Positions 11,516-44,324 of a stretch of DNA of 44,993 nt are shown one piece after another (the stretch's first letter is position 1; the number at the start of each line of letters is the position of its first letter). A model generated the notes under the pieces. The model ran no database searches. It was given only the letters and a program-made list of their open reading frames with translations, and was not told where the DNA came from. Location: the NCBI GenBank assembly GCA_038064515.1, contig JBBTSY010000005.1, positions 3,100 to 48,092 on the forward strand. The letters are read 5' to 3'. The stretch is from Patescibacteria group bacterium. Lineage in GTDB: Bacteria > Patescibacteriota > Minisyncoccia > 2-02-FULL-40-12 > GWA2-44-9. A program made the translations under genes and the position numbers.

Positions 11516-11936
11516 GTTCTTATTCTAATGAAACTCAGATTCACCCAAGCCTCTCGGCAGTGAATCTGCCTGTTTTTATTCAGCCTTCGCTGAATGTAAC
11601 TCATATTTGTTTAAGGCCATCGCCTACAAATCTGCCTGATTTAATTTTGTTTACACAAAATTAAATCAAAAAGCCGGACTAGCCGGCAATTGCCAAAGCT
11701 CGTCTGTAACAACCGATTATGTTTCGATACGTGATGAAACCAATTAGATGTTATAAGGCACTGACCCAAGTGTGTATTTTTAGAAACCGGGTGGCGAACT
11801 AGGCCAACCACTTGTGGTGAGCCTGCCTGCGCAGGCAGGCTTGTCGAACCATTGCCGGATAAATACTACAGCCGGATTACTGCCTTAGTCCCCCGCTCCA
11901 AACAATGCCTGGGGCAGAGAGTAAGGTTACAATCCT
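11516..11936 (-). other. Unusually long (421-nt) hairpin-rich spacer between rpsJ and rplC
   Basis: No ORF of 60 aa or more. Hairpins are cagattcac/gtgaatctg, attcagc/gctgaat, gatttaattttgt/acaaaattaaatc and gccgg/ccggc followed by a U-run on the minus strand. The region also holds a 20-bp palindrome at 11821-11840. Confidence 0.6.
11821..11840. repeat. Perfect 20-bp palindrome GCCTGCCTGCGCAGGCAGGC
   Basis: Read directly. Identical to the copy at 34836-34855. Confidence 0.9.
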
Positions 11937-13775: not shown

Positions 13776-14087
13776 CTACGGGGCCTGCTTCTCGTCCTGC
13801 TCAATCTGGTCTTTCAGTGCCTGTATTTCCCGATTTAAGCGTTCCAGCGCTTCTACTTCCTGGGCGCTTAAAGCTGCTCGCACCGGCGCCTCTTCTGAAG
13901 CCTGCGGAACGGGGAAGTTCAGAGCTTCGGCATCGTTAGCCTTCTTTACTTTGACTTCCTGTTCCTTGGCTTGCGTCAGATTGCGGTATACCTGGTAATC
14001 CAGGATCACATACGATGGCTCCCCTTCATCCAAGATCAGAACTGATGTCGAGTTCTTAAGCAGGTCTTTTAATTCTCGAATATCCAC
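13776..14087 (-). CDS. Phd/YefM-like antitoxin-fold N-terminal domain fused to an acidic coiled-coil tail. GTG start.
   Basis: The N-terminus (STSVLILDEGEPSYVILDYQVYRNL) resembles the Phd/YefM pattern. No adjacent toxin gene was recognised. Confidence 0.5.
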   Translation of the reverse strand: MDIRELKDLLKNSTSVLILDEGEPSYVILDYQVYRNLTQAKEQEVKVKKANDAEALNFPVPQASEEAPVRAALSAQEVEALERLNREIQALKDQIEQDEKQAP

Positions 14088-14236
14088 TTCTTACACTCAC
14101 TGACGAGATATGGCTCGCGTTCCGCTTCACAATGTGCTGCGGAGAAGCTAAGTGCAACAGGTCAGGTTTAATCGGTATACAAATCAATTCCTCGCCATTC
14201 ACTCGGAACAACTCGTCTGTGAGTGTGAGGATCCAT
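14088..14236 (-). ncRNA. Copy A of a roughly 130-150-nt structured repeat element (family 2)
   Basis: A 14-bp closing stem joins 14094-14107 and 14212-14225. An inner stem gttccg/cggaac joins 14119-14124 and 14204-14209. It is homologous to 26612-26763, with compensatory changes between the copies. Confidence 0.55.
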
Positions 14237-14260
14237 CCATCAGTTCTACCGTACCGATAT

Positions 14261-14308
14261 AAAAAAGCAAGCCCGCCCAACTTTTGCTTTCGCAAAACTT
14301 AGGCGGGC
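14261..14308 (-). terminator. Rho-independent terminator after ORF 14367..15188
   Basis: On the minus strand GCCCGCC pairs with GGCGGGC around an inner AAGUUUUGC/GCAAAAGUU stem. UUGCUUUUUU follows. Confidence 0.65.
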
Positions 14309-14366
14309 AAGGCTTCGGCAACAGCTGGGAAGCTACTATCGGGGTCACGGCCTAACTGTTCAAAAA

Positions 14367-15188
14367 TCAGCGCAAGAATATTTGACCGGCTTCGTTCCAG
14401 TCAGCCGCCTCTTTGACGGAGCTGGCATTTAAGGACCATTTGCCGGCCCCAGCGACCCACATCGCGATAACAACCCGGAGGTTATTGTCAACATCACGGG
14501 TATAGAACATGTTGGAAAGTCCCGACCCCCTCTCTATCAAGAGGATTCCGGCATTGCCGTGGAGTTGCCTGGAGAGCAACTCCCACAAGTGAACCAGCGA
14601 AATCTCAGCGCGGTTGCCCCGCATATCGAAAGTGTGAGCCTGCAAAGGGCCCCTGGAGAGCTTGTAGGCCTTCAGTGTTTGAGCTGGGACATTCTCCTCG
14701 GCCTTAGTTAGAAACCACTCCTTGAATCTATCAGACATGATTAAGTGATCCTTATTGGCACCGAATGTCTCCTCTGCTGAGAACTTCTCGACTGCCTGGA
14801 CAGATACACTGCCCATTAGCTCAAGATCTACGGGTTCGATATATGCTCTTTCCCTATGAAAGCTCTGATGTTTTTCATCTCCTGTCATCATTTTCTCGGC
14901 TTTCTGTAACTCTTCTGGCGTAGATTGGTCTTTTCCCTTAGTCTCTTGAGAAACATCGTCAATACTGGTCCAATATCCATCGATGTCATCTTGGGGTTCA
15001 TCCACGGCTCCAGGATCATGTTTTTGAGCTTCTTCTCTGGTAGCATACTCACCGATAACTACAGGGGTTTCTGGTCCATTTTTCCAGCGAACGTGCTTTA
15101 TGACTCTAAATCTTGGTTGTTCGACTTCTCCCGCCGATTTTACTTTTTCCTCTTTTTCTATTGGTCTTTTATATTTTTCTTCGGACAT
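14367..15188 (-). CDS. Hypothetical protein, 273 aa. N-terminal module shared with ORF 15278..16438. Unique C-terminal domain.
   Basis: 55 consecutive residues (KHVRWKNGPETPVV...SQETKGK) are identical to the neighbouring ORF. The C-terminal domain was not recognised. Confidence 0.6.
   Translation of the reverse strand: MSEEKYKRPIEKEEKVKSAGEVEQPRFRVIKHVRWKNGPETPVVIGEYATREEAQKHDPGAVDEPQDDIDGYWTSIDDVSQETKGKDQSTPEELQKAEKMMTGDEKHQSFHRERAYIEPVDLELMGSVSVQAVEKFSAEETFGANKDHLIMSDRFKEWFLTKAEENVPAQTLKAYKLSRGPLQAHTFDMRGNRAEISLVHLWELLSRQLHGNAGILLIERGSGLSNMFYTRDVDNNLRVVIAMWVAGAGKWSLNASSVKEAADWNEAGQIFLR
14931..15100. repeat. 170-bp perfect direct repeat, copy 1 (partner at 16184-16353)
   Basis: Compared base by base. 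It encodes the shared N-terminal module of the two paralogs. Confidence 0.9.
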
Positions 15189-15277
15189 GTTTTTGTAAAA
15201 TTAAATTATTAATATCTTAACTCTATGACCACCCGATAGATAAAGTCGATTGCATTTATGTTTAACCCATACTAAAT

Positions 15278-16438
15278 TCACCGAATTATACCTTTTTTTA
15301 CAATTAACTCCACGACATCAAAAACTTGATCTGGCGATAAGCGAGAGCGAGAACCGTCAGCATTTCTAGGAGCACCACCAATAGTAGAGCCTCCTCCCCA
15401 TCCAGGTTCTAATTTATTTAACTCGTGCAAAATCGTGCCTTCTTTCGATACGGGGCCAACCGGAAAATTACTGACTAGCTCTGATTTCTTTGCGATAGTA
15501 TATGCGTAACTACCGTCTGCTTGCTGTTGCATAGCTACAGCCCTCGTATGACCTGCCTTATATATGAGATCGAAGACAAAATCATTTGATTGGGCCATAA
15601 TCCAATTAGTACCTTCTCTTACTACCTCGAAATTGCGAGCAATTTCTTGTTTCGTGTATTTAAAATTGCCGGCCACAAGATCGTCAAGATTCTTTAAGCA
15701 TTGCTCAAGGAGTGTGTTCAGATCGTCTTGACTGTATGTCCGATTTCTCCTTGCATCGCTTTCCGGTTTCATAACTCCTTTATAAAATGCGTCCGCTAGT
15801 TCTGCGTCGAGAGGCTCATAGGCTGGTCCATGAGCGTCGATTCCGCCAACCGACTCAACAAGCATTCTTATCTTCAGACTATGAGCTTCACTTGGGTGAC
15901 GTAGTAACCAGACTGATAAAACGGTATCCCCATCAATATCATTTACATAGACTTTGCTTTTTTCCGGTTCGAACCCTAGAAGCAAAGCATCGAGTACTTG
16001 TTGACATGTAGCACGAGTTATTTGACGATTAACTTTATCATGATGATCAAAGGAGAATCTGTTACGCCCCACATCAAACTCAGGCCCCTGAACATATCCG
16101 TCAAGAGCAACACTGTTCTCGGGCATGTTATCAAACTGTTCTGTTTTACCACGTGCAATGACTAGATCCACCAGACTCTCTCCTTTTCCCTTAGTCTCTT
16201 GAGAAACATCGTCAATACTGGTCCAATATCCATCGATGTCATCTTGGGGTTCATCCACGGCTCCAGGATCATGTTTTTGAGCTTCTTCTCTGGTAGCATA
16301 CTCACCGATAACTACAGGGGTTTCTGGTCCATTTTTCCAGCGAACGTGCTTTACTACCCTGAATTTAGGATGCTCAGCTTCTCTCGTACTAGTTTCCTCT
16401 TTTTTTTCAACGATTGATTCGGGTTTCTCGCTATTCAT
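15278..16438 (-). CDS. Hypothetical protein, 386 aa. Shared N-terminal module plus a C-terminal domain with DHH/DHHA1-like motifs.
   Basis: The motifs FSFDHHD, DIDGDT and GWGGGSTIGGAP recall DHH-family phosphoesterases. Motifs I and II are not evident. Confidence 0.6.
   Translation of the reverse strand: MNSEKPESIVEKKEETSTREAEHPKFRVVKHVRWKNGPETPVVIGEYATREEAQKHDPGAVDEPQDDIDGYWTSIDDVSQETKGKGESLVDLVIARGKTEQFDNMPENSVALDGYVQGPEFDVGRNRFSFDHHDKVNRQITRATCQQVLDALLLGFEPEKSKVYVNDIDGDTVLSVWLLRHPSEAHSLKIRMLVESVGGIDAHGPAYEPLDAELADAFYKGVMKPESDARRNRTYSQDDLNTLLEQCLKNLDDLVAGNFKYTKQEIARNFEVVREGTNWIMAQSNDFVFDLIYKAGHTRAVAMQQQADGSYAYTIAKKSELVSNFPVGPVSKEGTILHELNKLEPGWGGGSTIGGAPRNADGSRSRLSPDQVFDVVELIVKKGIIR
16184..16353. 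repeat. 170-bp perfect direct repeat, copy 2
   Basis: Identical to 14931-15100. Confidence 0.9.
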
Positions 16439-16477
16439 AATTAAAAATTGTTATTAAGGCTGTAGCTTATCTTCGCA

Positions 16478-16509
16478 CTTATATTGTAATCCCCCCCCTG
16501 ATAAGTCAA
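16478..16509 (-). promoter_or_regulatory. Candidate promoter with a G8 homopolymer in the spacer
   Basis: On the minus strand TTGACT (16509-16504), then tatcaGGGGGGGGattacaa, then TATAAG (16483-16478). The spacer to TATAAG is 20 nt. The tract is C8 at 16491-16498 on the plus strand. Confidence 0.4.
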
Positions 16510-16565
16510 CCTAAAAACATAGCCGTTTTGGAGCTCTTTTCTTACAACAAGCGAGCCAATAGTTT

Positions 16566-16738
16566 TGAATCACTCCGGAGTATTTGATGAAATGAGCGAA
16601 AGTGAATAGCCGTAGTGGTGTTTCGAAGAAGGCCGCCCTAGTGGGCGGCCTTCTAGATGGAACGGAGGCGTGAGTGAGCTGAACGAATTTCTAAAATACG
16701 GAGATCGTGATGAAAAAACTATCGGCGAGCGGCTATTT
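16566..16738 (-). ncRNA. Copy E1 of a roughly 175-185-nt structured repeat element (family 3) abutting the fusA stop codon
   Basis: Homologous to 31469-31653. Conserved blocks are interleaved with a fully compensated variable hairpin (16627-16654). A long-range pairing joins 16605-16612 and 16730-16737. Confidence 0.55.
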
Positions 16739-18838
16739 CTTTCCTTCCATAATCTGCGTCGCGATATTGCCTGGAACAGGTTCATAGCGTTCAAACTCCA
16801 TCGTAAACGTACCCCGGCCCTCCGAGAAGGAGCGGATAGTGGTGGCGTATCCGAACATTTCTGAAAGCGGAACGCGCGAGTTAATAATCTTCAAGCCAAG
16901 TATACCTCGATCATCGACGCTCATAATCTGGCCACGGCGCGAGGAAAGATCGCCAGTAGTGGAACCAAGGAAATTGTCTGGAACGATAACTTCGACTTTC
17001 ATGATCGGTTCAAGGATAACCGGCTTGGCGCGCTTGACCGCTTCTTGAAATGCTATTGACCCAGCCACCTTGAAGGCGATTTCGGAAGAATCGACATCGT
17101 GATAAGAGCCATCGTAGACGGTGACTTTAATATCAACAACCGGGAATCCGGCGATAACGCCTTTATCAATGGCTTCACGGACACCTTTTTCAATGGCGGG
17201 GATGAATTCTTGAGGAATTGCGCCACCTTTGACGGCGTTCACAAACTCGAATCCTTCGCCGCGTTCTTTAGGCTCTACTCGCAACCAGCAATGGCCATAC
17301 TGACCGCGACCACCAGACTGCTTGATATATTTGCCCTCTGCCTGGGCTTTTGCGGAAATAGCTTCTTTATAGGCAACCTGCGGGCGACCAACATTTGCCT
17401 CGACGCCGAATTCACGTTTCATGCGCTCAACGAGAATTTCTAAGTGCAATTCACCCATGCCGGCGATGATCATTTCACTGGTCTCCTCATCACTCCGAAT
17501 ACGGAATGTAGGATCTTCATCGGAGAGTTTTTTCAAAGCCATACCCATCTTTTCCTGGTCAGCTTTAGTCTTTGGTTCAATGCGTAAGGAAATAACCGGT
17601 TCTGGAAAGTCGATACCTTCAAGAAGGATCGGATTATCGGGATCGCACAATGTATCCCCCGTTCGGGTATCTTTCAATCCGACTGTGGCGGCGATATTAC
17701 CCGCATAAATTTCTTTTACTTCTTCCCGATCATTGGCATGCATCCGGACAATGCGACTAATACGTTCCTGCTGGCCGCTACGCGTATTGAGGACATAGGA
17801 ACCGGCGGTAATCTTCCCGGAGTACACGCGGAAAAACGTCAAAGCGCCGACATACGGATCAGTCGCGGTTTTAAACGCCAGGGCGGTAAATGGAGCCGAA
17901 TCTTCGGAGGCAATCATTTTCTCTTCACCCGTTTTTTGAACCGTAGCTTTCGCGGGAGGAATATCCAATGGAGACGGGAGGTAGTAGGCCACCGCATCAA
18001 GCACGAGTTGAACGCCTTTATTTTTTAATGCCGAACCGCAAAGCACAGGGAAAATTTTATTTTCAAGCGTTGCCGCGCGAACAATACTTCGCAGACGAGA
18101 AACATCAATTTCTTTTCCCTCAAGGTATTCGGCCATAGCTTGATCGTCTTGCTCGACAATCTTCTCAATCATAGCCGCACGCTCTTTTTTCGCGGCTTCA
18201 ATGAGATGATCAGGAATTTCACCTTTGATGACCTTTTCGCCCTTATCTCCTAAAAACGTAACATATTCCATCGTCATTAGGTCAACGATGCCTTTGAATT
18301 GATCTTCATGACCATCCGGAATTTGAAGTTTCACGGCAAACGGAGAAAGACGTTCAAGGATCGACTGGTAGGAACGCTCAAACGAGGCACCCAAGCGGTC
18401 GAGTTTATTAATAAAGCAGATGCGCGGAACTTTGTAATCGTCCGCATAGCGCCAATTAGTTTCCGATTGAGGTTCCACGCCGGCAACGCCGTCAAACACT
18501 ACCACAGCACCGTCGAGTACGCGCAAAGATCGTTTTACTTCAATAGTAAAGTCGATGTGTCCCGGAGTATCAATGATGTTAAGCTTGACTTTGTCCGCAT
18601 CCTTATCTTTAGCATCGGTCGGGATCCAGTAGGCAGTCGTGGCGGCGGCAGTAATGGTGATACCGCGCTCTCGCTCCTGTTCCATCCAGTCCATAATCGT
18701 ATCGCCTTCGTGAACTTCACCGATTTTGTGAGAAATACCGGTATAAAAAAGAATACGCTCCGATGTCGTCGTTTTGCCTGCATCGATGTGCGCGATAACA
18801 CCGATATTGCGAATTTTTTCAATTGGATAGTCTGCCAT
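16733..18838 (-). CDS. fusA: Elongation factor G
   Basis: 701 aa with AHIDAGKTT and DTPGH motifs and a typical EF-G sequence. Confidence 0.98.
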
Positions 18839-21030: not shown

Positions 21031-21101
21031 CGGGCTGTGGTATAACGGTATTACGCATGGCTGGGGGTCATGTAACCCGGGTCCAACTCCCGGCAGCCCG
21101 A
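21031..21101 (+). tRNA. tRNA-Pro (anticodon GGG)
   Basis: Cloverleaf folded by hand. The acceptor stem is CGGGCUG/CAGCCCG with the C1-G72 pair and A73 typical of bacterial tRNA-Pro. The anticodon loop is CUGGGGG with G37. The T-loop UCCAACU has C at position 55, which is atypical. No CCA is encoded. Confidence 0.65.
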
Positions 21102-21104
21102 CAT

Positions 21105-21315
21105 CAGAAATAAAAATAGAGCCGTTCTGCGGCTCTATTTTTATTTCTGATGTCGCAATTACTGAACGCCGCTCGAACCTTTTTTGAACAAAACTCTTGA
21201 TTGCCGCGCTTCGCGCGGCAGGAACGAAATCTAACGCTCGGGCGGGCAAAAAGAAAGGGGGTTGGGGGGAATGAATTTTTGCCCGCCCTCGCTTTCCGCC
21301 GCCGCCGAATTTCGT
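21105..21315. repeat. Left copy of a perfect 211-bp inverted repeat
   Basis: It is the reverse complement of 23334-23544, checked base by base. It contains three hairpins: a 20-25-bp AU-rich stem, tgccgcgc-TTCG-gcgcggca, and gggcgggcaaaaa..tttttgcccgccc with a C/G-rich loop. Confidence 0.9.
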
Positions 21316-21473
21316 ATTTCGCTTTGCGAAATGCGCCGCAGAAAAGAGAGGAGTTGTGTTTGCCCCGCCCTCCCGTGCGCACACAACAAAGTTTTTACTC
21401 CCATTTATCATATATTGGATTATAATACACTCTTGTTAAAGAGTGCAATAGACGCTATATTACAACCAAGTTT

Positions 21474-22568
21474 ATGAACGGAAAAATTACATTTAGCAAT
21501 TCCAGTCTTGAGTCTATTAACGGGATAGATTATTTACGCTTGAGAGAGGAAAGTCATTACAAAACCGGCCTTGCCGCCGGAAATCTTTTTGTTAAATCAA
21601 ACTATAAAATAATCAGGCTTTTAAAAAATCCTTTCGTAAATATAATTTTGTGGTTTCTTCGCCTTAAATACGAAAAGAAAATTCCAGAAGTCCGCATTCC
21701 AAAAGAATATCAAGATGAACTTAGAGGTTGTGCGGAGGCGACAAAAATTCCATATAAATATCTACTCTTAATAAATTTAATCTACGAAATTAGGGGGTGT
21801 TCCGGTTTTGTTTTTTTTAATCCTGATGGATCCTTACTTCTTGGACACAATACTGATGTCTCAAAAATGTTGGCAAAGCTTGCTCTTCGTTACATGAAGC
21901 CGCTCGTAACGGATGTATCAATCCCTGGAAAGAATAATTTTGTTCATGTTGCTATGCCTCTCATTTTGGGGGCGATAAATGGTTTTAATGATAAAGGCAT
22001 AGCAGTATCTTCACATGATGCTGGAGGCATCTACGCTAAAGTTGTGAAAAATAACACCAGCACTTCGTGTCTTGTAAAAATGGTTCTAGAAAATGCCGAG
22101 AGTTTAGCTGAAGTTCAAAAGACAGCACAGGAAAATCTTGCTTATTATCCTGGAATTATGATTGTTGCGAGTGCGCGTGAGCGTAAAGCTTCTATACTTG
22201 AAGCTTATCCGTCAGATTTTGATTTTGTGTCTTTCACAAACACTTCTTATATTTTTTCTGCAAATCACTATCAGAGCGACAAAATGAGAAAATATCATAG
22301 AGAAGTTAAAAAGGGTAGTTTGGATAGATTAACTTGCCTACAAGGAAGTTTATCTGGAAAAAATATTTTGTCGGTTCAAGAAGCTATCCAAATTTTGAAA
22401 GACCACAGAAATGGCATACACCGCGACACAACCGGATATTCAATAGCGAATATAGGGACATTTCAAAGTTTTATTTTTGATGTAACGAGGAGTAAAGTTT
22501 ATATTTCAAATGGTAAAAAATTACCTGTTCCTTTGCACGGTAATTTTGTCAAAATCAGTGCTTTATGA
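21474..22568 (+). CDS. Ntn-hydrolase, peptidase C45 / acyltransferase-like protein
   Basis: GCSGFVFFNPDGSLLLGHNTD resembles the catalytic-Cys block of the C45 / choloylglycine-hydrolase-type family. Confidence 0.6.
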   Translation: MNGKITFSNSSLESINGIDYLRLREESHYKTGLAAGNLFVKSNYKIIRLLKNPFVNIILWFLRLKYEKKIPEVRIPKEYQDELRGCAEATKIPYKYLLLINLIYEIRGCSGFVFFNPDGSLLLGHNTDVSKMLAKLALRYMKPLVTDVSIPGKNNFVHVAMPLILGAINGFNDKGIAVSSHDAGGIYAKVVKNNTSTSCLVKMVLENAESLAEVQKTAQENLAYYPGIMIVASARERKASILEAYPSDFDFVSFTNTSYIFSANHYQSDKMRKYHREVKKGSLDRLTCLQGSLSGKNILSVQEAIQILKDHRNGIHRDTTGYSIANIGTFQSFIFDVTRSKVYISNGKKLPVPLHGNFVKISAL

Positions 22569-22771
22569 AAAATATTTCTACAAAAATCGGCAAAAATTTA
22601 AAACGAATCAGAACTGAAAAGAAAATGTCGCAGGGCGACATTTCTAGGAAGTTAGGCATGGACAGAGGGTATATAAGTGGTGTTGAAAATGGAAAAAGAA
22701 ACCCGACAGTTGCCACAGTTGAAAAACTGGCAAACGCCTTAGGTATTTCCGTTGACGAATTATTGAAATGA
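22565..22771 (+). CDS. XRE-family helix-turn-helix transcriptional regulator
   Basis: 68 aa with the classical HTH_3 pattern (LKRIRTEKKMSQGDISRKLGMDRGYISGVENGKRNPTVATVEKLANALG). Confidence 0.85.
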   Translation: MKNISTKIGKNLKRIRTEKKMSQGDISRKLGMDRGYISGVENGKRNPTVATVEKLANALGISVDELLK

Positions 22772-23280
22772 AAAACTACAGAAAAATTCTCGGATTACTG
22801 TCTGGAATTATGGCAATTGCGATGCTCATAATTCCGATTTTCTTTTACAGAAATTTGAGTGAAGTAGCCAAAAGCACCGGGTACGTTGGGTATTTTTTCG
22901 CAAATTATTTCGGCTTTGGAATCTATACACTTCCTTTCCTCGTAAAAATATTAAATCCATTTTTACTAATTATAATCGGTGCTTTTGGCTTAACTATTGA
23001 TGAATTTTTTGCATGGTATGCGGGCAATGTTTCAGAAGAACTCGACCGTTCTAAAAAATTTCACAACAAGATACAATCTTATGTTGAACGATATGGACTT
23101 CTTGCCATATTCATATTTGGTTTATTACCTCTGCCCGGAATAGTTTATGCCATATCAGGCTTTGCCGCAGGGCATTTCAAAATTCCTTTTTACAAATTTT
23201 TTCTTACAAACTTTTCCGCAAAGCTAATCCGAACAACAATAATTGTAATTGGACTTTTGGTATTTTTTGAAAAAATTTGA
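22768..23280 (+). CDS. DedA/YqaA-like (VTT-domain-like) membrane protein
   Basis: 170 aa with 4-5 TM segments. The GLLPLPG...SGFAAG pattern resembles YqaA/DedA. Confidence 0.55.
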   Translation: MKNYRKILGLLSGIMAIAMLIIPIFFYRNLSEVAKSTGYVGYFFANYFGFGIYTLPFLVKILNPFLLIIIGAFGLTIDEFFAWYAGNVSEELDRSKKFHNKIQSYVERYGLLAIFIFGLLPLPGIVYAISGFAAGHFKIPFYKFFLTNFSAKLIRTTIIVIGLLVFFEKI

Positions 23281-23333
23281 GAATAAGGCATAAATTGGGT
23301 AGAATAACATTGCGGTGTGCTAACTTCGTTGGC

Positions 23334-23544
23334 ACGAAATTCGGCGGCGGCGGAAAGCGAGGGCGGGCAAAAATTCATTCCCCCCAACCCCCTTTCTTTT
23401 TGCCCGCCCGAGCGTTAGATTTCGTTCCTGCCGCGCGAAGCGCGGCAATCAAGAGTTTTGTTCAAAAAAGGTTCGAGCGGCGTTCAGTAATTGCGACATC
23501 AGAAATAAAAATAGAGCCGCAGAACGGCTCTATTTTTATTTCTG
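23334..23544. repeat. Right copy of the perfect 211-bp inverted repeat
   Basis: Reverse complement of 21105-21315. Confidence 0.9.
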
Positions 23545-25749: not shown

Positions 25750-26616
25750 TTATTGCTTATTAAGATAATACGAAGTCCCATCACTGATAAGACGAATCAT
25801 TCCATCAGTATCAGTACGATACAGTGTTGCACCGAAATTTTCAAGGCGGGAAAGAATCAGTTCCGCAGGATGCTTGTACCGATTTTTTACTCCTACCTGA
25901 ATTATTGCCGCTTGCGGGGTAACAGCATCGAGGAACGGCAACGCCGTCGAAGTTTTTGATCCATGGTGGCCCACTTTCAATACATCCGCATCGATATCGA
26001 TATTATTATTGACCAAGATGCGTTCCACGGCCGCCTCCATATCACCCGCCAACAGAACTTTTACGTGCTTATATTGAAGCATCGCTACCACGTTGTCATC
26101 GTGAGGCTTATCAGTCGCAGTGCCGAGCACTGATTTCAGAGGATGGATAATCGTAAAAGTCATTTCGGGTCCTAAGTTGATCTGTTTTCCCGCCACAGTA
26201 TCAATTTCGATTGTATGCTCTTGAGCAACCGCTTCCTGCCACGATCGGAATTCTAATGAATCATATTGCTCTCCTGCCTGAATGACATAGCCAACGTCAT
26301 AATGCTTTAATACATCAATTAATCCGGCGATATGATCGCTATGAGGATGGCTAACCACGACCGCATCGATAGACCGATCGTAAAATGGCATCACCCGCGC
26401 CAGCTCCGCAATCACGGCACTGTCCGGTCCGCCATCGACAAGCACCTGGTTGCCATTCGGAGCTTCTATAAAGATGGCGTCTCCCTGGCCGACATTCAAA
26501 AAATATATTTTTAAAAGTCCATCCTTCTGCCCTGCGGCTTGTGAACTTGAAAACGCCAGCACGATGAGTACCAGGGCGATGATTCCCGCAATTATTTTAT
26601 CTCTATTCGTATCCAT
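25750..26616 (-). CDS. Membrane-anchored metallo-beta-lactamase-fold protein (ComEC C-terminal domain homolog)
   Basis: HPHSDHIAG motif. I chose the start at MDTNRDKII (ATG at 26616), followed by a TM helix. The upstream part of the tracked ORF is the family-2 repeat element. Confidence 0.8.
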   Translation of the reverse strand: MDTNRDKIIAGIIALVLIVLAFSSSQAAGQKDGLLKIYFLNVGQGDAIFIEAPNGNQVLVDGGPDSAVIAELARVMPFYDRSIDAVVVSHPHSDHIAGLIDVLKHYDVGYVIQAGEQYDSLEFRSWQEAVAQEHTIEIDTVAGKQINLGPEMTFTIIHPLKSVLGTATDKPHDDNVVAMLQYKHVKVLLAGDMEAAVERILVNNNIDIDADVLKVGHHGSKTSTALPFLDAVTPQAAIIQVGVKNRYKHPAELILSRLENFGATLYRTDTDGMIRLISDGTSYYLNKQ

Positions 26617-26763
26617 CCTTACACTCATTGACGAGATATGGCTCGCGTTCCGTCTCACATAGTGGTGCGGAAAAGCTTTGCCATACAGATCAGCATTATG
26701 ATGATTCAAACAAATCCTCGCCATTCACTCGGAACAACTCATCAATGAGTGTCAGGATCCATG
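26612..26763 (-). ncRNA. Copy B of the family-2 structured repeat element, wedged between the two comEC-derived ORFs
   Basis: A closing stem joins 26622-26635 and 26738-26751. An inner stem joins 26647-26652 and 26730-26735. The comEC stop codon (26752-26754) abuts the stem. Confidence 0.55.
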
Positions 26764-28314
26764 ATGCCGATAGAACCACCAAATTCCTCCGATCAGCAGT
26801 ACATAAGCGAGAACGATTATAATCCACGGCAATGAGATCGAAACAGAGGCAAATGAGAATGATGCCGCATGTTCAACGATCCAGAGCTGATATCGCGCTA
26901 ATGCCCACGCCACTACGCCGATAATCTTTCCCAGCGGAATCCAGATCATGCCGCTTATGCCCGCTATGAAACCAAACAGCATTACTGCGGGGACAATCGG
27001 TAGGATTAAAATATTTACCACCAAAGAAACCAGCGAGAAAGAATGAAAATACCCCACTAAAAGCAGGATAACCATCACCTGTGCCGAAAGCGTCATAAGA
27101 GCAATTTCTTTTAATCCCGTCAATGAAGGAGCTCGCTGTGCCCAACGCTGAAATATCGGATACAAATATAAAAGACCGATAACCGCCAAAAAAGAAAGCT
27201 GAAAACCAATATCAAACACGAGGATGAATGGATTAAAGAAAACCATCAGCGCACCGGCCAGAATAATGCCATTTTTCGCATCATAGAGACGGCCGTATCC
27301 GGAGGCGAAAAGGACTAATAGTCCCATTACCGCCGCTCGCACCACTGACGCCGAAGCTCCCGTCAGCAACGTAAAAAGAATAATGGCCGCCGTGGCGATC
27401 CAAATTGCTCTGCGTCGCCGGAACCAAAACAATAATACCCCCAGCACCGCCTCGGCGACGATGGTGATGTTGTATCCGGATATCGCCAAAATATGACTAG
27501 TCCCCGTCGTAGCAAAGGCATCTTGGAGACGCTCTGGGATCGCGCTACGCGAACCCAGAAGCACTCCTTGGATATAGGCGGCCTCCGGCTCTGCTATCGT
27601 GCCTATGAGCGCTGACTCGAAACGCGATTTTAATCCCTGCAGAGCGCGATACACGACAACACTGCTCCGCTCCCAAAGACCCAAGGATATTGATCCCTCC
27701 GCCAGAATATCGGGAGAAGAAAAAATGCTTCGAATACCTTGTTTTTTCAGATACGTCGCATAATCAAATGATTCGGAATTTTTAGGAGCTTGCGGCGCGC
27801 CTTCGATGGTAAGGATATCGCCATAACGATACCCCGCTCTATTATCAGCGGTCACAAGAACCCGTTCTCCTGCCGAGAAAGTTCTTTTGAGCGCGATGAT
27901 TTCTTTTACTTCAAAAGGAAACTGCGATTGTAATCCCCGTTCCCGAACATCTCCTGCCACATATCCCACCACACGCACAGAAATGCCCTTGCCTCCCGCC
28001 TCTCGATCGTTAAACTGCGTGACACGGCTGTGATCAGCGTCGAATTGCTGAAACCGGTAGATACCCCCCGTTGCAAGGATGATGCAAAATCCGATAACAA
28101 AGCCTACCTTCCGGCGCTTAATACCTGCGACTGTTTGTCCGAATGTGCGATGATAGGCTGATACTCCAAAAAATAAAGTCCCCAGCCCGATAAAAATCCA
28201 AAAATATTGTTCACCAAAATGCCAGAATGATCCGATAAGCGTTCCAACCAGAAAAGCGATCAGAAAATACGAGAGAACTTGAGACTTGTGCATACCTGTA
28301 TCGTACCTGATCAA
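26752..28314 (-). CDS. comEC: ComEC/Rec2-type competence channel protein (DUF4131 plus competence domains, lacking the MBL domain)
   Basis: 520-aa polytopic membrane protein with the typical ComEC sequence (GTSHILAISGYNITIV). Confidence 0.85.
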   Translation of the reverse strand: MIRYDTGMHKSQVLSYFLIAFLVGTLIGSFWHFGEQYFWIFIGLGTLFFGVSAYHRTFGQTVAGIKRRKVGFVIGFCIILATGGIYRFQQFDADHSRVTQFNDREAGGKGISVRVVGYVAGDVRERGLQSQFPFEVKEIIALKRTFSAGERVLVTADNRAGYRYGDILTIEGAPQAPKNSESFDYATYLKKQGIRSIFSSPDILAEGSISLGLWERSSVVVYRALQGLKSRFESALIGTIAEPEAAYIQGVLLGSRSAIPERLQDAFATTGTSHILAISGYNITIVAEAVLGVLLFWFRRRRAIWIATAAIILFTLLTGASASVVRAAVMGLLVLFASGYGRLYDAKNGIILAGALMVFFNPFILVFDIGFQLSFLAVIGLLYLYPIFQRWAQRAPSLTGLKEIALMTLSAQVMVILLLVGYFHSFSLVSLVVNILILPIVPAVMLFGFIAGISGMIWIPLGKIIGVVAWALARYQLWIVEHAASFSFASVSISLPWIIIVLAYVLLIGGIWWFYRHHGS

Positions 28315-31203: not shown

Positions 31204-31468
31204 GTGGGGCGCGAAGGAGAAGAGGAAAGAGATGCGCCGCTCGTGCGAATCTCTTTACCCTCCTGCTTATTTAAACAATCCGTTGGTAGATGAATTTAAC
31301 CATCTTTTGACCGTGCCCACAATGTTGATAACCCTCCGTTCGGCATTTCCTCCGAATTTATGCGCCCCCGCTGACCATTTCAGCTCGCTTCACTCCTCCT
31401 AAGCGAGCGTGCGCTTTGAGAAATCCTCGCCGAAAAGGAGCGAAGCAAGCCAGCGAGCTCCCGTCTTC

Positions 31469-31653
31469 TGAATCACTTCGCGAGGTATTTGATGAAATAA
31501 GCGAAGTCGAATAGCCGAAGTGGTGCTTCGACGTAAAGAAGCTTCCTTATGGAAGCTTCTTTACTAGGTGGAACGGAGGTGTAGATGAGACGAGCGAACC
31601 TTTCCAAATACCGAGGCAGTTGTGATGAAAAAGATGGTAGCGAGCGGCTATTT
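31469..31653 (-). ncRNA. Copy E2 of the family-3 structured repeat element abutting the ftsZ stop codon
   Basis: See copy E1. The variable hairpin is 31533-31564. The long-range pairing joins 31510-31517 and 31645-31652. Confidence 0.55.
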
Positions 31654-32799
31654 GTTCATTTTGCGCCGTATAAACGCCGGAATATCAAAATCTTTTTCAT
31701 CTTCGATCGAGGGATCGATGATTTCTTTCACCTCTTTTACGGGTTCACGCTCCATAATATCTTGTTTCTTGATAGCGTTATCAAAGAGGCTTAGGCCGCC
31801 ACCATTATATTTTGCAGACGGATTTGAAGGTGATACGGGATAGGTATTCGTAAAACCAGTCGCTACGACAGTGATCTTGATCTCCCCTTTCTTGAGCTTG
31901 TCATCAACGACAGCGCCGAAGATGACTTTTGCATCGGGATCAATGTGTTCAGTGATAATCCGTGCCGCTTCGCTGATTTCTGCCATTGCCATGTCGGTAC
32001 CGCCGGACACGTTAAAAAGAACGCCGCGAGCGCCGTCGATGGAGAGTTCCAGGAGCGGAGAGTTGATCGCCATACGAGCCGCCTCTACGGCTCGATCTTC
32101 GCCGGAAGCTCTCCCGATGCCCATGAGCGCCGATCCAGAGTTAGACATAACCGCCTTCACGTCGGCAAAGTCGGTATTAACAATACCAGGGATAGTGATG
32201 AGATCAGAAATACCTTGGACGCCCTGTCGAAGGACGTCATCAACTACTGCGAATGATTCGAGTAACGGAGTCTTGCGATCAATGATGGAAAGGAGTCGGT
32301 CATTAGGGATCGTGATAAGCGCGTCAACCTTATCGCGCAGAAGCTGAAGACCTTCTTCGGCCACGCGAGAGCGTTGAGCTCCCTCAAAGCTAAAGGGCCT
32401 GGTTACGACTGCCACGGTCAGTGCGCCGGATTCTCGAGCCATGTCAGCGATAACCGGTGCGGCGCCTGTTCCGGTACCTCCACCCAACCCTGTCGCAATA
32501 AAAACCATATCGGCTCCCTTAAGAGCGGTAAGAATGTCTTCTCGGGTCTGTTCGGCGGCTTCGCGACCGATGCTCGGATTCATGCCAGCGCCAAGGCCTC
32601 GCGTGAGACTTTTGCCAATGTGAATCTTTACCGGAGCGTTTGAATTGTGGAGTGACTGGGCATCGGTATTTACGGCAATAAATTCAACGCCGTGAATCCG
32701 TGCTTCGATCATTCGCTCTAGGGCATTACCGCCCGAGCCGCCAAGACCTAACACTTTAATGCGGGCAAACGTTTCAAATTGAGGTTTAACTTGGGGCAT
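31648..32799 (-). CDS. ftsZ: Cell division protein FtsZ
   Basis: [11 protein letters not shown] signature. 383 aa. Confidence 0.98.
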
Positions 32800-34739: not shown

Positions 34740-35228
34740 CTATATTAACTTTTCGAGTTCCTCTTTTACGATACGGCTGACAGCTTGGCCATCCGCTCGC
34801 CCCTTCACTTTTGGCATGACAGCGCCGATGACTTTGCCTGCCTGCGCAGGCAGGCCCATCTCAGCAATAACTTTCTTCACTTCGGCACGAATGGCGTCAT
34901 CGGAAATCTGTTCCGGCATGTATTGTATCAGAACGGCGAGTTCTTCCTGTTCCTGCGCCGCCAATTCCGGCCTTCCAGCTTGCGCATAGGTCTCAATCGC
35001 TTCTCTGCGCTTTTTGATTTCCGAGGAAATGACTTCAATGGCCTCTTCATCGTTAATAAGGCTCGCGTTTTCTAGATCGTTTGTCGCGCCCGCCTTGCTA
35101 AGCTTGCTTCGCTTTTCAAGTTCTCGATTTTTAATTGCGGAAAGAAGCGAATTTAACACGGTCCGCTTTTTGCTATCCCCAGCTTTGAGAGCTTCTTTTA
35201 CGTCCGACAAAAGTCTTTCCTTAAGCAT
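34740..35228 (-). CDS. GatB/YqeY-domain protein with a palindrome-encoded LPAQAG insert
   Basis: YqeY-like sequence. The palindrome 34836-34855 reads CTG CCT GCG CAG GCA GGC in frame. Confidence 0.8.
   Translation of the reverse strand: MLKERLLSDVKEALKAGDSKKRTVLNSLLSAIKNRELEKRSKLSKAGATNDLENASLINDEEAIEVISSEIKKRREAIETYAQAGRPELAAQEQEELAVLIQYMPEQISDDAIRAEVKKVIAEMGLPAQAGKVIGAVMPKVKGRADGQAVSRIVKEELEKLI
34836..34855. repeat. Perfect 20-bp palindrome GCCTGCCTGCGCAGGCAGGC inside a coding sequence
   Basis: Identical to 11821-11840. Confidence 0.9.
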
Positions 35229-42698: not shown

Positions 42699-44195
42699 AT
42701 GAAATATATACTTTACGCTCGCAAGAGTACCGAGGACGAGGATGGGCAGATTTTGAGCATTGAGGCCCAAATCTTTGAATTAAAAGAATTTGCCGCCAAA
42801 GAAAAACTTGAAATTGTCGCTTCCTTTCAGGAAGCAAAAACTGCCAAAGAACCTGGGCGAATGAAATTCGCAGAAATGTTGTCATTGATTGAGAAAGGAA
42901 AGGCGGATGGCATACTTTCATGGAATCCTGATCGTCTTGCTCGCAATTCAGTAGACGGCGGGAAAATAATTCACATGATAGATCGCGGCTTGATTAAAGC
43001 GTTGAAGTTCCCAACGTTCTGGTTTGAACCGACACCACAGGGACTTTTCATGCTTCAAATTGCTTTTGGACAAAGTAAGTATTATGTAGATGCTCTGCGT
43101 GAAAATGTTACTCGTGGTATGAGGCAAAAAGTGAGAAACGGCGTTTGGCCAAGCAAAGCGCCACTCGGCTATCTCAATAATCCCAAAACGCGAGGAATTG
43201 ATGTTGATACCGAGAAAGCTTCTGAAGTTAAGAAAGTTTTTGATCTCTACGCCACTGGAAACTACAATCTCCGAGAATTAGCCGAGTGGTGTAAGCGAGT
43301 AAATCTCAAAAGCAATTTGGGCAATGACATTTCAATTGGAAAAGTCCATGAGCTTTTACAAAATGTCTTCTACCTTGGCCTTATGAAATACAAGGGCGAA
43401 CTCTACGAAGCCACTCACAAGCCAATCATTTCAAAGAAACTTTTTGATAAGGTGCAAGTAATTATGCGAGAAAAAGGTAAGCCGCAAAAAGTGAAGAAAC
43501 ATAATTTTACTTTTCTTGGACTTATGAAATGCCCTTGTTCGGCAGCAATAACCGCCGAAAAGAAGATCAAGCCAAGTGGCAGAGAATATGTTTATTACCG
43601 ATGCACAAAAAAGAAAGGCCCATGCCAGGAAAAGTATTTTTTGCGGCAGGAAGAATTGTATCAGCAAGTTAGATCATTTCTTCAAAAAGTTTCTTTGCCG
43701 AGCCAAGACACCGAAAAAGTTTTGCGCGAGCTGGAAAAAGAAGAATCGCAAGCGAAAGAACAAGCTAAAATCACTGTTCAAAATCTCAAAACCAAGTTAG
43801 CCGAAGTCGGGCTAAAATTGGAAAAACTTCTCGATGTGTATTTGGAAGAAACCATAACCGCCGAGGAATACGCCTCACGCAAAGAAAAACTGGTCAAGCA
43901 AAAAGTCGGTTTACAAGAACAAATCCGAGATTTTGAACAGAAAGGGTTGTCATGGCTCGAACCGGCTCGTGAGTTCGTTTTATCGTTAAATCAAGCCGCT
44001 AAAATGCTTGAGTCCGAAAACAAAACCGAGATGACAACATTTCTTAAAAATATCGGCTCGGACTGCATTTTACAGAATCGCCAACTGATTTTTTCGCCCA
44101 GAAAACCTTACGATTTGGTCGCCGAGCAAAACGAGGCGAATGCCCCTTGCTTGCAATTTCCTGTCTGGTGGACCCTAGCGGATTCGAACCGCTGA
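42699..44195 (+). CDS. Large serine recombinase
   Basis: Resolvase-type N-terminus (YARKSTEDEDGQILSIEAQ), a recombinase domain, a Cys-rich zinc ribbon (CPCS...YYRCTKKKGPC) and a coiled coil. The last 41 codons run through arm Y, the core, and the antisense strand of tRNA-Ala. Confidence 0.88.
   Translation: MKYILYARKSTEDEDGQILSIEAQIFELKEFAAKEKLEIVASFQEAKTAKEPGRMKFAEMLSLIEKGKADGILSWNPDRLARNSVDGGKIIHMIDRGLIKALKFPTFWFEPTPQGLFMLQIAFGQSKYYVDALRENVTRGMRQKVRNGVWPSKAPLGYLNNPKTRGIDVDTEKASEVKKVFDLYATGNYNLRELAEWCKRVNLKSNLGNDISIGKVHELLQNVFYLGLMKYKGELYEATHKPIISKKLFDKVQVIMREKGKPQKVKKHNFTFLGLMKCPCSAAITAEKKIKPSGREYVYYRCTKKKGPCQEKYFLRQEELYQQVRSFLQKVSLPSQDTEKVLRELEKEESQAKEQAKITVQNLKTKLAEVGLKLEKLLDVYLEETITAEEYASRKEKLVKQKVGLQEQIRDFEQKGLSWLEPAREFVLSLNQAAKMLESENKTEMTTFLKNIGSDCILQNRQLIFSPRKPYDLVAEQNEANAPCLQFPVWWTLADSNR
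44073..44173. repeat. attR-like site: 93-bp arm Y plus core TGGTGGAC
   Basis: Identical in inverted orientation to 42563-42663. The core is the 3' end of tRNA-Ala. Confidence 0.85.
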
Positions 44196-44241
44196 CCTCC
44201 TCATTGCAAATGAGGCGCTCTACCAACTGAGCTAAGGGCCC
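44166..44241 (-). tRNA. tRNA-Ala (anticodon UGC), CCA encoded
   Basis: Hand-folded cloverleaf with the G3:U70 identity pair, anticodon loop UUUGCAA and T-loop GGTTCGAATCC. Confidence 0.93.
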
Positions 44242-44252
44242 GTGGTTCCGTG

Positions 44253-44324
44253 TGGGCGACGAAGGAATCGAACCTTCGACCTCTGTCTTATCAGGACAGC
44301 GTTCTACCACTGAACTAGTCGCCC
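44253..44324 (-). tRNA. tRNA-Ile (anticodon GAU)
   Basis: Hand-folded cloverleaf with acceptor GGGCGAC/GTCGCCC, anticodon loop CUGAUAA and T-loop UUCGAUU. Confidence 0.92.

Follow-up and report, generated by a model that had tools for sequence, protein, structure and literature searches.

What is the 140-nt repeat that stands twice on the minus strand of this 44,993-nt stretch of Patescibacteria DNA (hereafter the window), each time at the very start of a gene? A preliminary description had reported two copies with conserved ends and a variable middle, at 14088-14236 and 26612-26763, and had offered a mobile structured RNA, a cis-regulatory leader, and a processing signal as candidates. The repeat pair is confirmed as real and as more than chance. 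The copies align at 80% identity over 141 nt in blastn, MAFFT and a repeat finder align ~140 nt, and a covariance model built from both scores copy A at 174.5 bits. The edges first given required correction. Copy A, delimited by the two-copy alignment and by the empty sites of related contigs L012 and L013 (see below), occupies 14087..14230 (-) and is 144 nt long (CCTCACACTCACAGACGAG ... CTCGTCAGTGAGTGTAAGAAG); copy B occupies 26616..26756 (-) and is 141 nt long, or 140 nt from 26617 if its target-site duplication is 6 bp. The claim that the repeats end 3-8 nt before a start codon does not hold, as the last base of the element is the first base of the start codon at both loci (GTG at 14087, ATG at 26616).

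The pattern of conservation is as first described. Read on the minus strand, the copies are identical at 38 of the first 42 alignment columns (90%) and at 53 of the last 62 (85%), and the middle 40 columns contain indels and only 20 identities (50%). Two sub-terminal blocks are invariant: GAGTTGTTCCGAGTGAATGGCGAGGA, at 14189..14214 (-) in copy A and 26715-26740 (-) in copy B, and CGGAACGCGAGCCATATCTCGTCA, at 14101..14124 (-) and 26629-26652 (-), respectively. With up to three mismatches allowed, the blocks are found nowhere else in the window, and shuffled sequence yielded 0 matches. Examination of all six frames revealed no ORF common to the two copies, and no frame is open or conserved in both, in agreement with the earlier proposal that the conservation is not protein-coding.

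Comparison with related genomes, where the orthologous sites are empty, shows each copy to be an insertion. Three contigs that are 92-94% identical in nucleotide sequence to the window over the flanking genes (L013, L014, and L015), and a more distant, syntenic contig that is ~70% identical (L012), lack the element at both loci; the comEC junction of L011 is also empty, reading ATGGAAT. At this junction, L012-L015 read ...CATGGATACGAAT..., and the window reads ...CATGGAT-[141 nt]-TGGATACGAAT.... The ATGGAT of L013 (10001-10006) and that of L012 (2432-2437) align by blastn to both sides of the copy B insertion. At the copy A site, the empty sequence is caggATGGATattcgagaa / caggATGGATattcgagaattaaaagac in L013 and cctATGGATattcgtgaa / cctATGGATattcgtgaattaaaagac in L012; the window has ATGGAT-[144 nt]-TGGATATTCGAGAATTAAAAGAC. 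Thus, L012-L015 carry an unbroken ...ATGGATA... at both loci, where the window has ATGGAT-[element]-(A/G)TGGAT.

TGGAT therefore flanks both copies, as a duplication of 5-6 bp. At copy A, the 5′ TGGAT (14231..14235, minus strand) forms, with A 14236, the original ATGGAT start of the downstream gene; the 3′ TGGAT lies at 14082..14086 (-), and its TG combines with the element's own G (14087) to give the present GTG start. At copy B, the 5′ duplicate is TGGAT at 26757..26761 (-), or ATGGAT if 26762 is included, and the 3′ duplicate is at 26611..26615 (-), where A 26616 plus TG makes the present ATG of a metallo-β-lactamase-fold (MBL) gene. The duplication at copy B is probably the 6-bp ATGGAT. 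Copy A has one extra base at its right tip, the 3′ junction, and fits a duplication of either 5 or 6 bp.

This finding recasts the "closing stem" of the preliminary description, which is the pair of terminal inverted repeats of the inserted DNA. In copy B, the left repeat (26738..26756, minus strand; CCTGACACTCATTGATGAG) and the right repeat (26616..26635, minus strand; reverse complement CCTTACACTCATTGACGAG) match at 17 of 19 positions and are co-terminal, taking the duplication as 6 bp; both ends start with CCT, and the left repeat holds the TGA (26752-26754) that now ends the upstream gene, comEC-N. In copy A, the left repeat (14212..14230, minus strand; CCTCACACTCACAGACGAG) and the right repeat (14087..14107, minus strand; CTCGTCAGTGAGTGTAAGAAG), whose tip is one nucleotide longer than that of copy B, match at 13 of 14 core positions with a 1-nt offset at the tip. 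The inverted-repeat sequence of the element is CCTNACACTCA. The 14-bp stem reported earlier is thus present, and it extends to ~19 bp. The C-G to T-A double change between copies was confirmed in the alignment and fold of both, as were the position that is mismatched in A and paired in B and the G-U pair of copy B on the minus strand. The interior helices fared less well. The proposed inner stem gttccg/cggaac is indeed conserved, but its invariance is uninformative on pairing, and a local hairpin (UCCGC...GCGGA) competes with it; the proposed third stem (GCGAGGA/UCUCCGC) contains an A-C mismatch and was not recovered by RNAalifold.

Folds of the single copies beat their shuffles on either strand (z = -3.1 to -4.8), with no strand preference in the MFEs, and the RNAalifold consensus energies, which derive from two sequences only, are -34.55 and -34.35 kcal/mol on the two strands. 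As RNA, the stem of the element amounts to -45 to -49 kcal/mol. A stem made of inverted repeats explains why neither strand folds better than the other and why the only covariation is located in the stem: the two-copy consensus contains one compensatory pair on each strand, within the inverted repeats. The right arm differs between copies at one position and the left arm at three, and the chance of the single right-arm change being opposite and complementary is p ~0.1 by a hand estimate, which is not significant. As a covariation signal, this lone pair is suggestive at best; co-evolution of the two ends towards a fit with one transposase would be expected to yield it just as well. A compensatory change is not what simple neutral decay of the repeats predicts, and this counts against the transposon reading that we adopt below. 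In the two copies, the interiors, 50% identical, share no common structure and no covariation.

What kind of element has inserted? Its small size, inverted repeats, duplication against empty sites, and conserved ends around a degenerate, gene-free core lead to a MITE-like non-autonomous transposon. The traits of such elements are found here: 140-144 bp without coding capacity, inverted repeats, and a target duplication visible against empty sites. As for dispersion, two diverged copies lie within 45 kb, and only these two independent copies are known. We consider it very probable that the two repeats belong to a non-autonomous transposon with terminal inverted repeats, a MITE from a family not described before. 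The proposed transposase, encoded elsewhere, would bind both ends of the element and make staggered cuts at an (A)TGGAT target, leaving the 5-6 bp duplication; the conserved inner blocks would most simply be its sub-terminal binding sequence. Since the flanks are 92-94% identical to genomes with empty sites, both insertions are recent and postdate the split of this strain from those relatives. The copies are themselves only ~80% alike, so each stems from a different, already diverged source copy of an older family. This implies further family members, and the transposase, somewhere in this lineage.

The mobile candidate of the preliminary description thus stands through the empty sites in relatives, and its structured RNA, cis-regulatory leader, and processing signal are unsupported. 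An RNA class is opposed by loci that are empty in relatives 92-94% identical to the window, by unrelated downstream genes, by a fold that is equal on both strands, and by covariation confined to the inverted repeats. A DNA-level MITE with target-site duplications had been named as the outcome that would speak against a structured RNA, and on the DNA side this is what the two loci contain.

Rfam 15 at gathering thresholds, applied to the whole window, returned only tRNAs. At E <= 10 over both loci, a single match, sR28, touches the element (15.4 bits versus a threshold of 39); a stronger DUF3800-VIII match (20.6 bits versus a threshold of 40.2) falls outside copy A, on a terminator-like hairpin at 14271-14308. 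The covariance-model search that had been suggested for finding relatives covered the window, with filters off, and six related loci (69 kb); it recovered the two known copies and generic hairpins, and no third copy. A 20-mer from block 3 of the element had 0 matches in 185,579 GTDB species representatives, and an 18-mer from block 4 had 12 there, all of them 18-21-nt chance matches in unrelated phyla. In JGI metagenomes, an 18-mer from block 3 retrieved the same Hainich locus only, plus chance matches in a phage gene. Pattern scans of viral contigs gave chance matches or none, and none was obtained in plasmids or phages. A query concatenating every open frame of the two copies, compared with 5.8 billion proteins, matched only the window's own 324-aa ORF (see below). 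No promoter-like site directed outward is common to both copies, and a full-text literature search yielded no relevant paper describing MITEs in Patescibacteria/CPR.

The window contains no autonomous partner and no DDE transposase; the sole recombinase encoded there is of the large serine type (42699-44195; Resolvase, Recombinase, and zinc-ribbon domains, 498 aa) and adjoins tRNAs at 44169-44241 and 44253-44324. The stretch 42699-44324, at the right end of the window, may mark the border of an integrated element. Within 21031-23544, two 51-nt direct repeats at 21099-21149 and 23494-23544, 90% identical and each palindromic and terminator-like, bracket 2.4 kb of plus-strand sequence. This bracketed segment starts at the 3′ end of a tRNA (21031-21101) and encodes an AAT-family acyltransferase, a VTT-domain protein, and a 157-aa ORF; L013 differs in the region. 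The segment looks like a small island integrated at the tRNA.

We then considered what each insertion did to its neighbors. Downstream of copy B lies the MBL gene (25750..26616, minus strand), which encodes a 288-aa protein resembling the C-terminal part of ComEC (Pfam Lactamase_B, E = 6e-20) and whose orthologs in L012-L015 begin at the same ATGGATACG. Gene callers place the start of this gene at an ATG in copy B (25750-26724), giving a 324-aa product of which the first 36 residues are element-derived, and public databases contain both the 288-aa and the 324-aa versions. Upstream lies comEC-N (26752..28314, minus strand), with DUF4131 and Competence domains in Pfam. In relatives, the two genes overlap by 14 nt, ATGGATACGAATA(A/G). 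In the window, the last codons and stop of comEC-N (..GGA TCC TGA) fall within the 5′ duplication and the element: the CCTGAC of copy B supplies the TGA, and the protein ends ...HHGS instead of ...HHGYE, two residues short. Homologs of comEC-N across the lineage are ~470-530 aa long and have no MBL domain, so the genes are natively separate and the element split no gene. More generally, ComEC of this Patescibacteria lineage (the window and L011-L015) is natively divided into a ~510-aa DUF4131 plus Competence gene and a ~288-aa MBL gene.

Several other explanations of the copy B locus were rejected. An insertion that split comEC is contradicted by the occurrence of comEC-N as a separate ~510-aa gene across the lineage. 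Ribosomal bypass, read-through, or an alternative code across copy B fails because the distance of 146 nt between the ATGGAT repeats is not divisible by 3 and two in-frame TGAs stand between the ORFs; long standard-code ORFs elsewhere speak against recoding of TGA. The nearest named relatives of the ComEC protein are from Candidatus Yanofskybacteria, Paceibacterota, and "Patescibacteria group", and the host genome is Yanofskybacteria/Paceibacterota-like, from groundwater.

The gene downstream of copy A (13776..14087, minus strand) encodes a conserved 103-aa protein without a Pfam match and precedes EF-Tu. The protein is 73% identical to its L012 ortholog, which begins MDIRELK; the L013 ortholog is encoded directly between EF-G and EF-Tu. 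Upstream of copy A, the sequence reads as a terminator-like hairpin followed by a T-run (14262..14312, minus strand), which a simple scan missed, probably owing to the long stem-loop. The T-rich tail and the bases after it are kept in relatives, so that between copy A and a strain-specific segment of 2.5 kb there remain ~45 nt of ancestral DNA.

That segment (14236-16725), located between EF-G and copy A, is absent from L013. It contains two paralogous genes without a Pfam match (14367-15188 and 15278-16438) that have a 204-nt stretch in common at 95% identity (14930-15133 and 16183-16386). A second repeat family of ~190 nt, probably the "Family 1" of the earlier reader, is found on the minus strand at 16560-16760 and 31465-31680, beginning directly at the EF-G and FtsZ stop codons. 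It carries a terminator-like hairpin whose stems are wholly different in the two copies yet paired in each (AAGGCCGCCC..GGGCGGCCTT versus AGAAGCTTCC..GGAAGCTTCT), and at both positions the sequence of the close relative L013 is different. A GC-rich palindrome of 20 nt, GCCTGCCTGCGCAGGCAGGC, occurs in identical form at 11821-11840 and 34836-34855 and in weaker versions at 525 and 3711; these sites are probably terminator hairpins of a shared type.

Why should both insertions coincide with start codons? In the reconstructed pre-insertion window, TGGAT occurs 98 times on the two strands (a count that does not treat gene starts separately); ATGGAT stands at gene starts in 5/33 cases and ATGGATA in 3/11. 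A target word containing ATG, combined with survival of only those insertions that spare the flanking genes, would leave both copies on start codons. Because the genome of the window is ~90% coding and insertions within genes are lost, two survivors at gene starts are unremarkable, a coincidence of roughly 10%. The shared orientation is expected from an asymmetric target and would in any case have a 50% chance. The new start codons, ATG 26616 in B and GTG 14087 in A, fall exactly at the original position, and the insertions are nearly harmless at the coding level. Thus, an insertion exactly on a start codon, or in a 14-nt gene overlap, can spare both neighboring genes. The start-codon position and the same orientation to the downstream gene would also fit a selected role at the RNA level.

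Such a role was weighed in its own right. Both copies are in sense orientation to the flanking genes and are probably co-transcribed with them. A transcribed element would fold into a hairpin with ~19 bp at its base, which would bring the old upstream signals and start (copy A) or the comEC-N stop (copy B) close beside the new start. From the old ATG, a uORF now runs into the left arm, of 22 codons in A and 6 codons in B; ribosomes moving into this arm would release the right arm and, with it, the new start codon. Coupling by unmasking is a familiar arrangement, and here it may explain why translation survives and the insertions are tolerated. A stronger proposal holds that the element is mobile and that its hairpin serves in the mRNA as a translational-coupling or regulatory leader, masking the region just 5′ of the new start until a ribosome on the old-ATG uORF or at the end of comEC-N opens the left arm, or else as an RNase III-type processing site. 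The sense orientation of both copies exactly at start codons speaks for this proposal, as do the uORFs, the stability and z-scores of the stem as RNA, the compensatory pair and the G-U pair on the transcribed strand, and, in copy B, a stem whose base has the comEC-N stop on its 5′ side and the MBL start on its 3′ side. However, the antisense strand folds equally well, the uORFs of the two copies differ in length and in sequence, the interior is unconserved, and close relatives show that the genes do not need the element; the single compensatory pair has the ~0.1 hand-estimated chance given above, and the target word plus selection explains the start-codon placement. On balance, we regard an RNA-level role as unlikely, its positive support being confined to position and one G-U pair. 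A bolder version, in which the element homes to first codons (ATG-GAT-A), rebuilds the start, and carries a hairpin that acts as a portable translational-coupling or regulatory module altering expression of the invaded gene, seems to us decidedly improbable; if true, it would amount to a start-codon-homing mobile leader in ultra-small CPR bacteria. A cis-regulatory RNA or riboswitch leader is not supported, given loci that are empty in the 92-94% relatives and unrelated downstream genes (MBL-fold and 103-aa protein). Rejected were a hammerhead-like CUGANGA motif, which is unconserved in copy B and has no Rfam match, and an integron attC site, as the inserted DNA has neither a cassette ORF nor core-site motifs.

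The duplication itself admits a different reading. A miniature IS200/IS605 derivative (PATE) would insert as single-stranded DNA 3′ of TGGAT without duplicating it, the second TGGAT belonging to the element as its right-end cleavage site. Both copies are flanked by this pentanucleotide and have one orientation relative to it, as a target-guided single-strand transposase would give, and sequence alone cannot tell a duplication from a target plus an identical right end. The ends of IS200/IS605 elements are not known to be mutual inverted repeats and have a separate sub-terminal hairpin each, whereas the present ends are inverted repeats of each other (17/19), and local hairpins are not significant in the left 60 nt (z = +0.7 and -0.4) and only weak in the right 60 nt (z = -1.5 and -0.5). 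The copy B duplication appears to be 6 nt with the A included, and no omega-RNA-type Rfam match was obtained. These observations make a single-strand element very unlikely. A chance or assembly artefact, in which mis-assembly created a spurious duplication, is excluded by independent assemblies. Although coverage of some small contigs is low, the copies differ at ~20% of positions, small contigs from two independent Hainich groundwater assemblies (L001 and L002) contain the copy A locus, either unchanged or differing by one SNP, and copy B recurs in a contig of an independent Logan assembly (L016). L002, from the same population, begins at the second base of the element, just inside its 5′ end; assemblies tend to break at repeats, and this start is typical of such a break.

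The MITE reading, which we retain, has two consequences. Two recent insertions of diverged copies show that a transposon family has been active in a small, streamlined Patescibacteria/CPR genome. For genome scanning, the locus is a caution: the inverted repeats of a mobile element can pass for an RNA stem with covariation, a question that the empty sites of relatives settle.

Set beside known systems, the element resembles cis-regulatory leaders and riboswitches, as represented in Rfam, in being a structured segment of ~140 nt directly upstream of a coding sequence on the sense strand; it departs from them in having no Rfam match, in not being kept at orthologous loci, in preceding unrelated genes, and in lacking interior covariation. 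The Correia elements, or NEMIS, are Neisseria MITEs of ~100-155 bp with inverted repeats; they are non-coding, lie next to or between genes, are co-transcribed, and form a long hairpin. Their repeats are 26 bp, they duplicate TA, and they are not known outside Neisseria. The present element is like them in size, inverted repeats, absence of coding capacity, gene-adjacent position, probable co-transcription, and a predicted long hairpin formed by the inverted repeats. Unlike them, it has ~19-bp repeats starting with CCT and a 5-6 bp (A)TGGAT duplication, and the sequences are not similar. ERIC/IRU, RUP, MITEAba12 (PMC6382973), and others (PMC3184786) are likewise imperfect palindromes of 100-150 bp at intergenic or gene-boundary sites, with the same consequences, and differ in their ends, duplication lengths, and hosts, none being known from Patescibacteria; the MITEAba12 duplication, for example, is 9 bp (PMC6382973). 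ISEcp1, of the IS1380 family, has the left inverted repeat CCTAGATTCTACGT and generates 5-bp direct repeats (PMC6061673). It shares with the present element the CCT start, found at both ends of copy B, and a duplication of 5-6 bp, but the agreement is limited to three terminal bases and duplication length, and ISEcp1 duplications are AT-rich and vary, where the present element repeats a single word. Members of the IS1380 family have ends beginning CC(T), a duplication of 4-5 bp, and a DDE transposase; the window yielded no transposase of this type, and the IS1380 family as the source of the transposase, resting on three bases, is a lead and not an assignment. On the MITE reading, this is an ordinary kind of element in an unusual host, a groundwater Patescibacterium.
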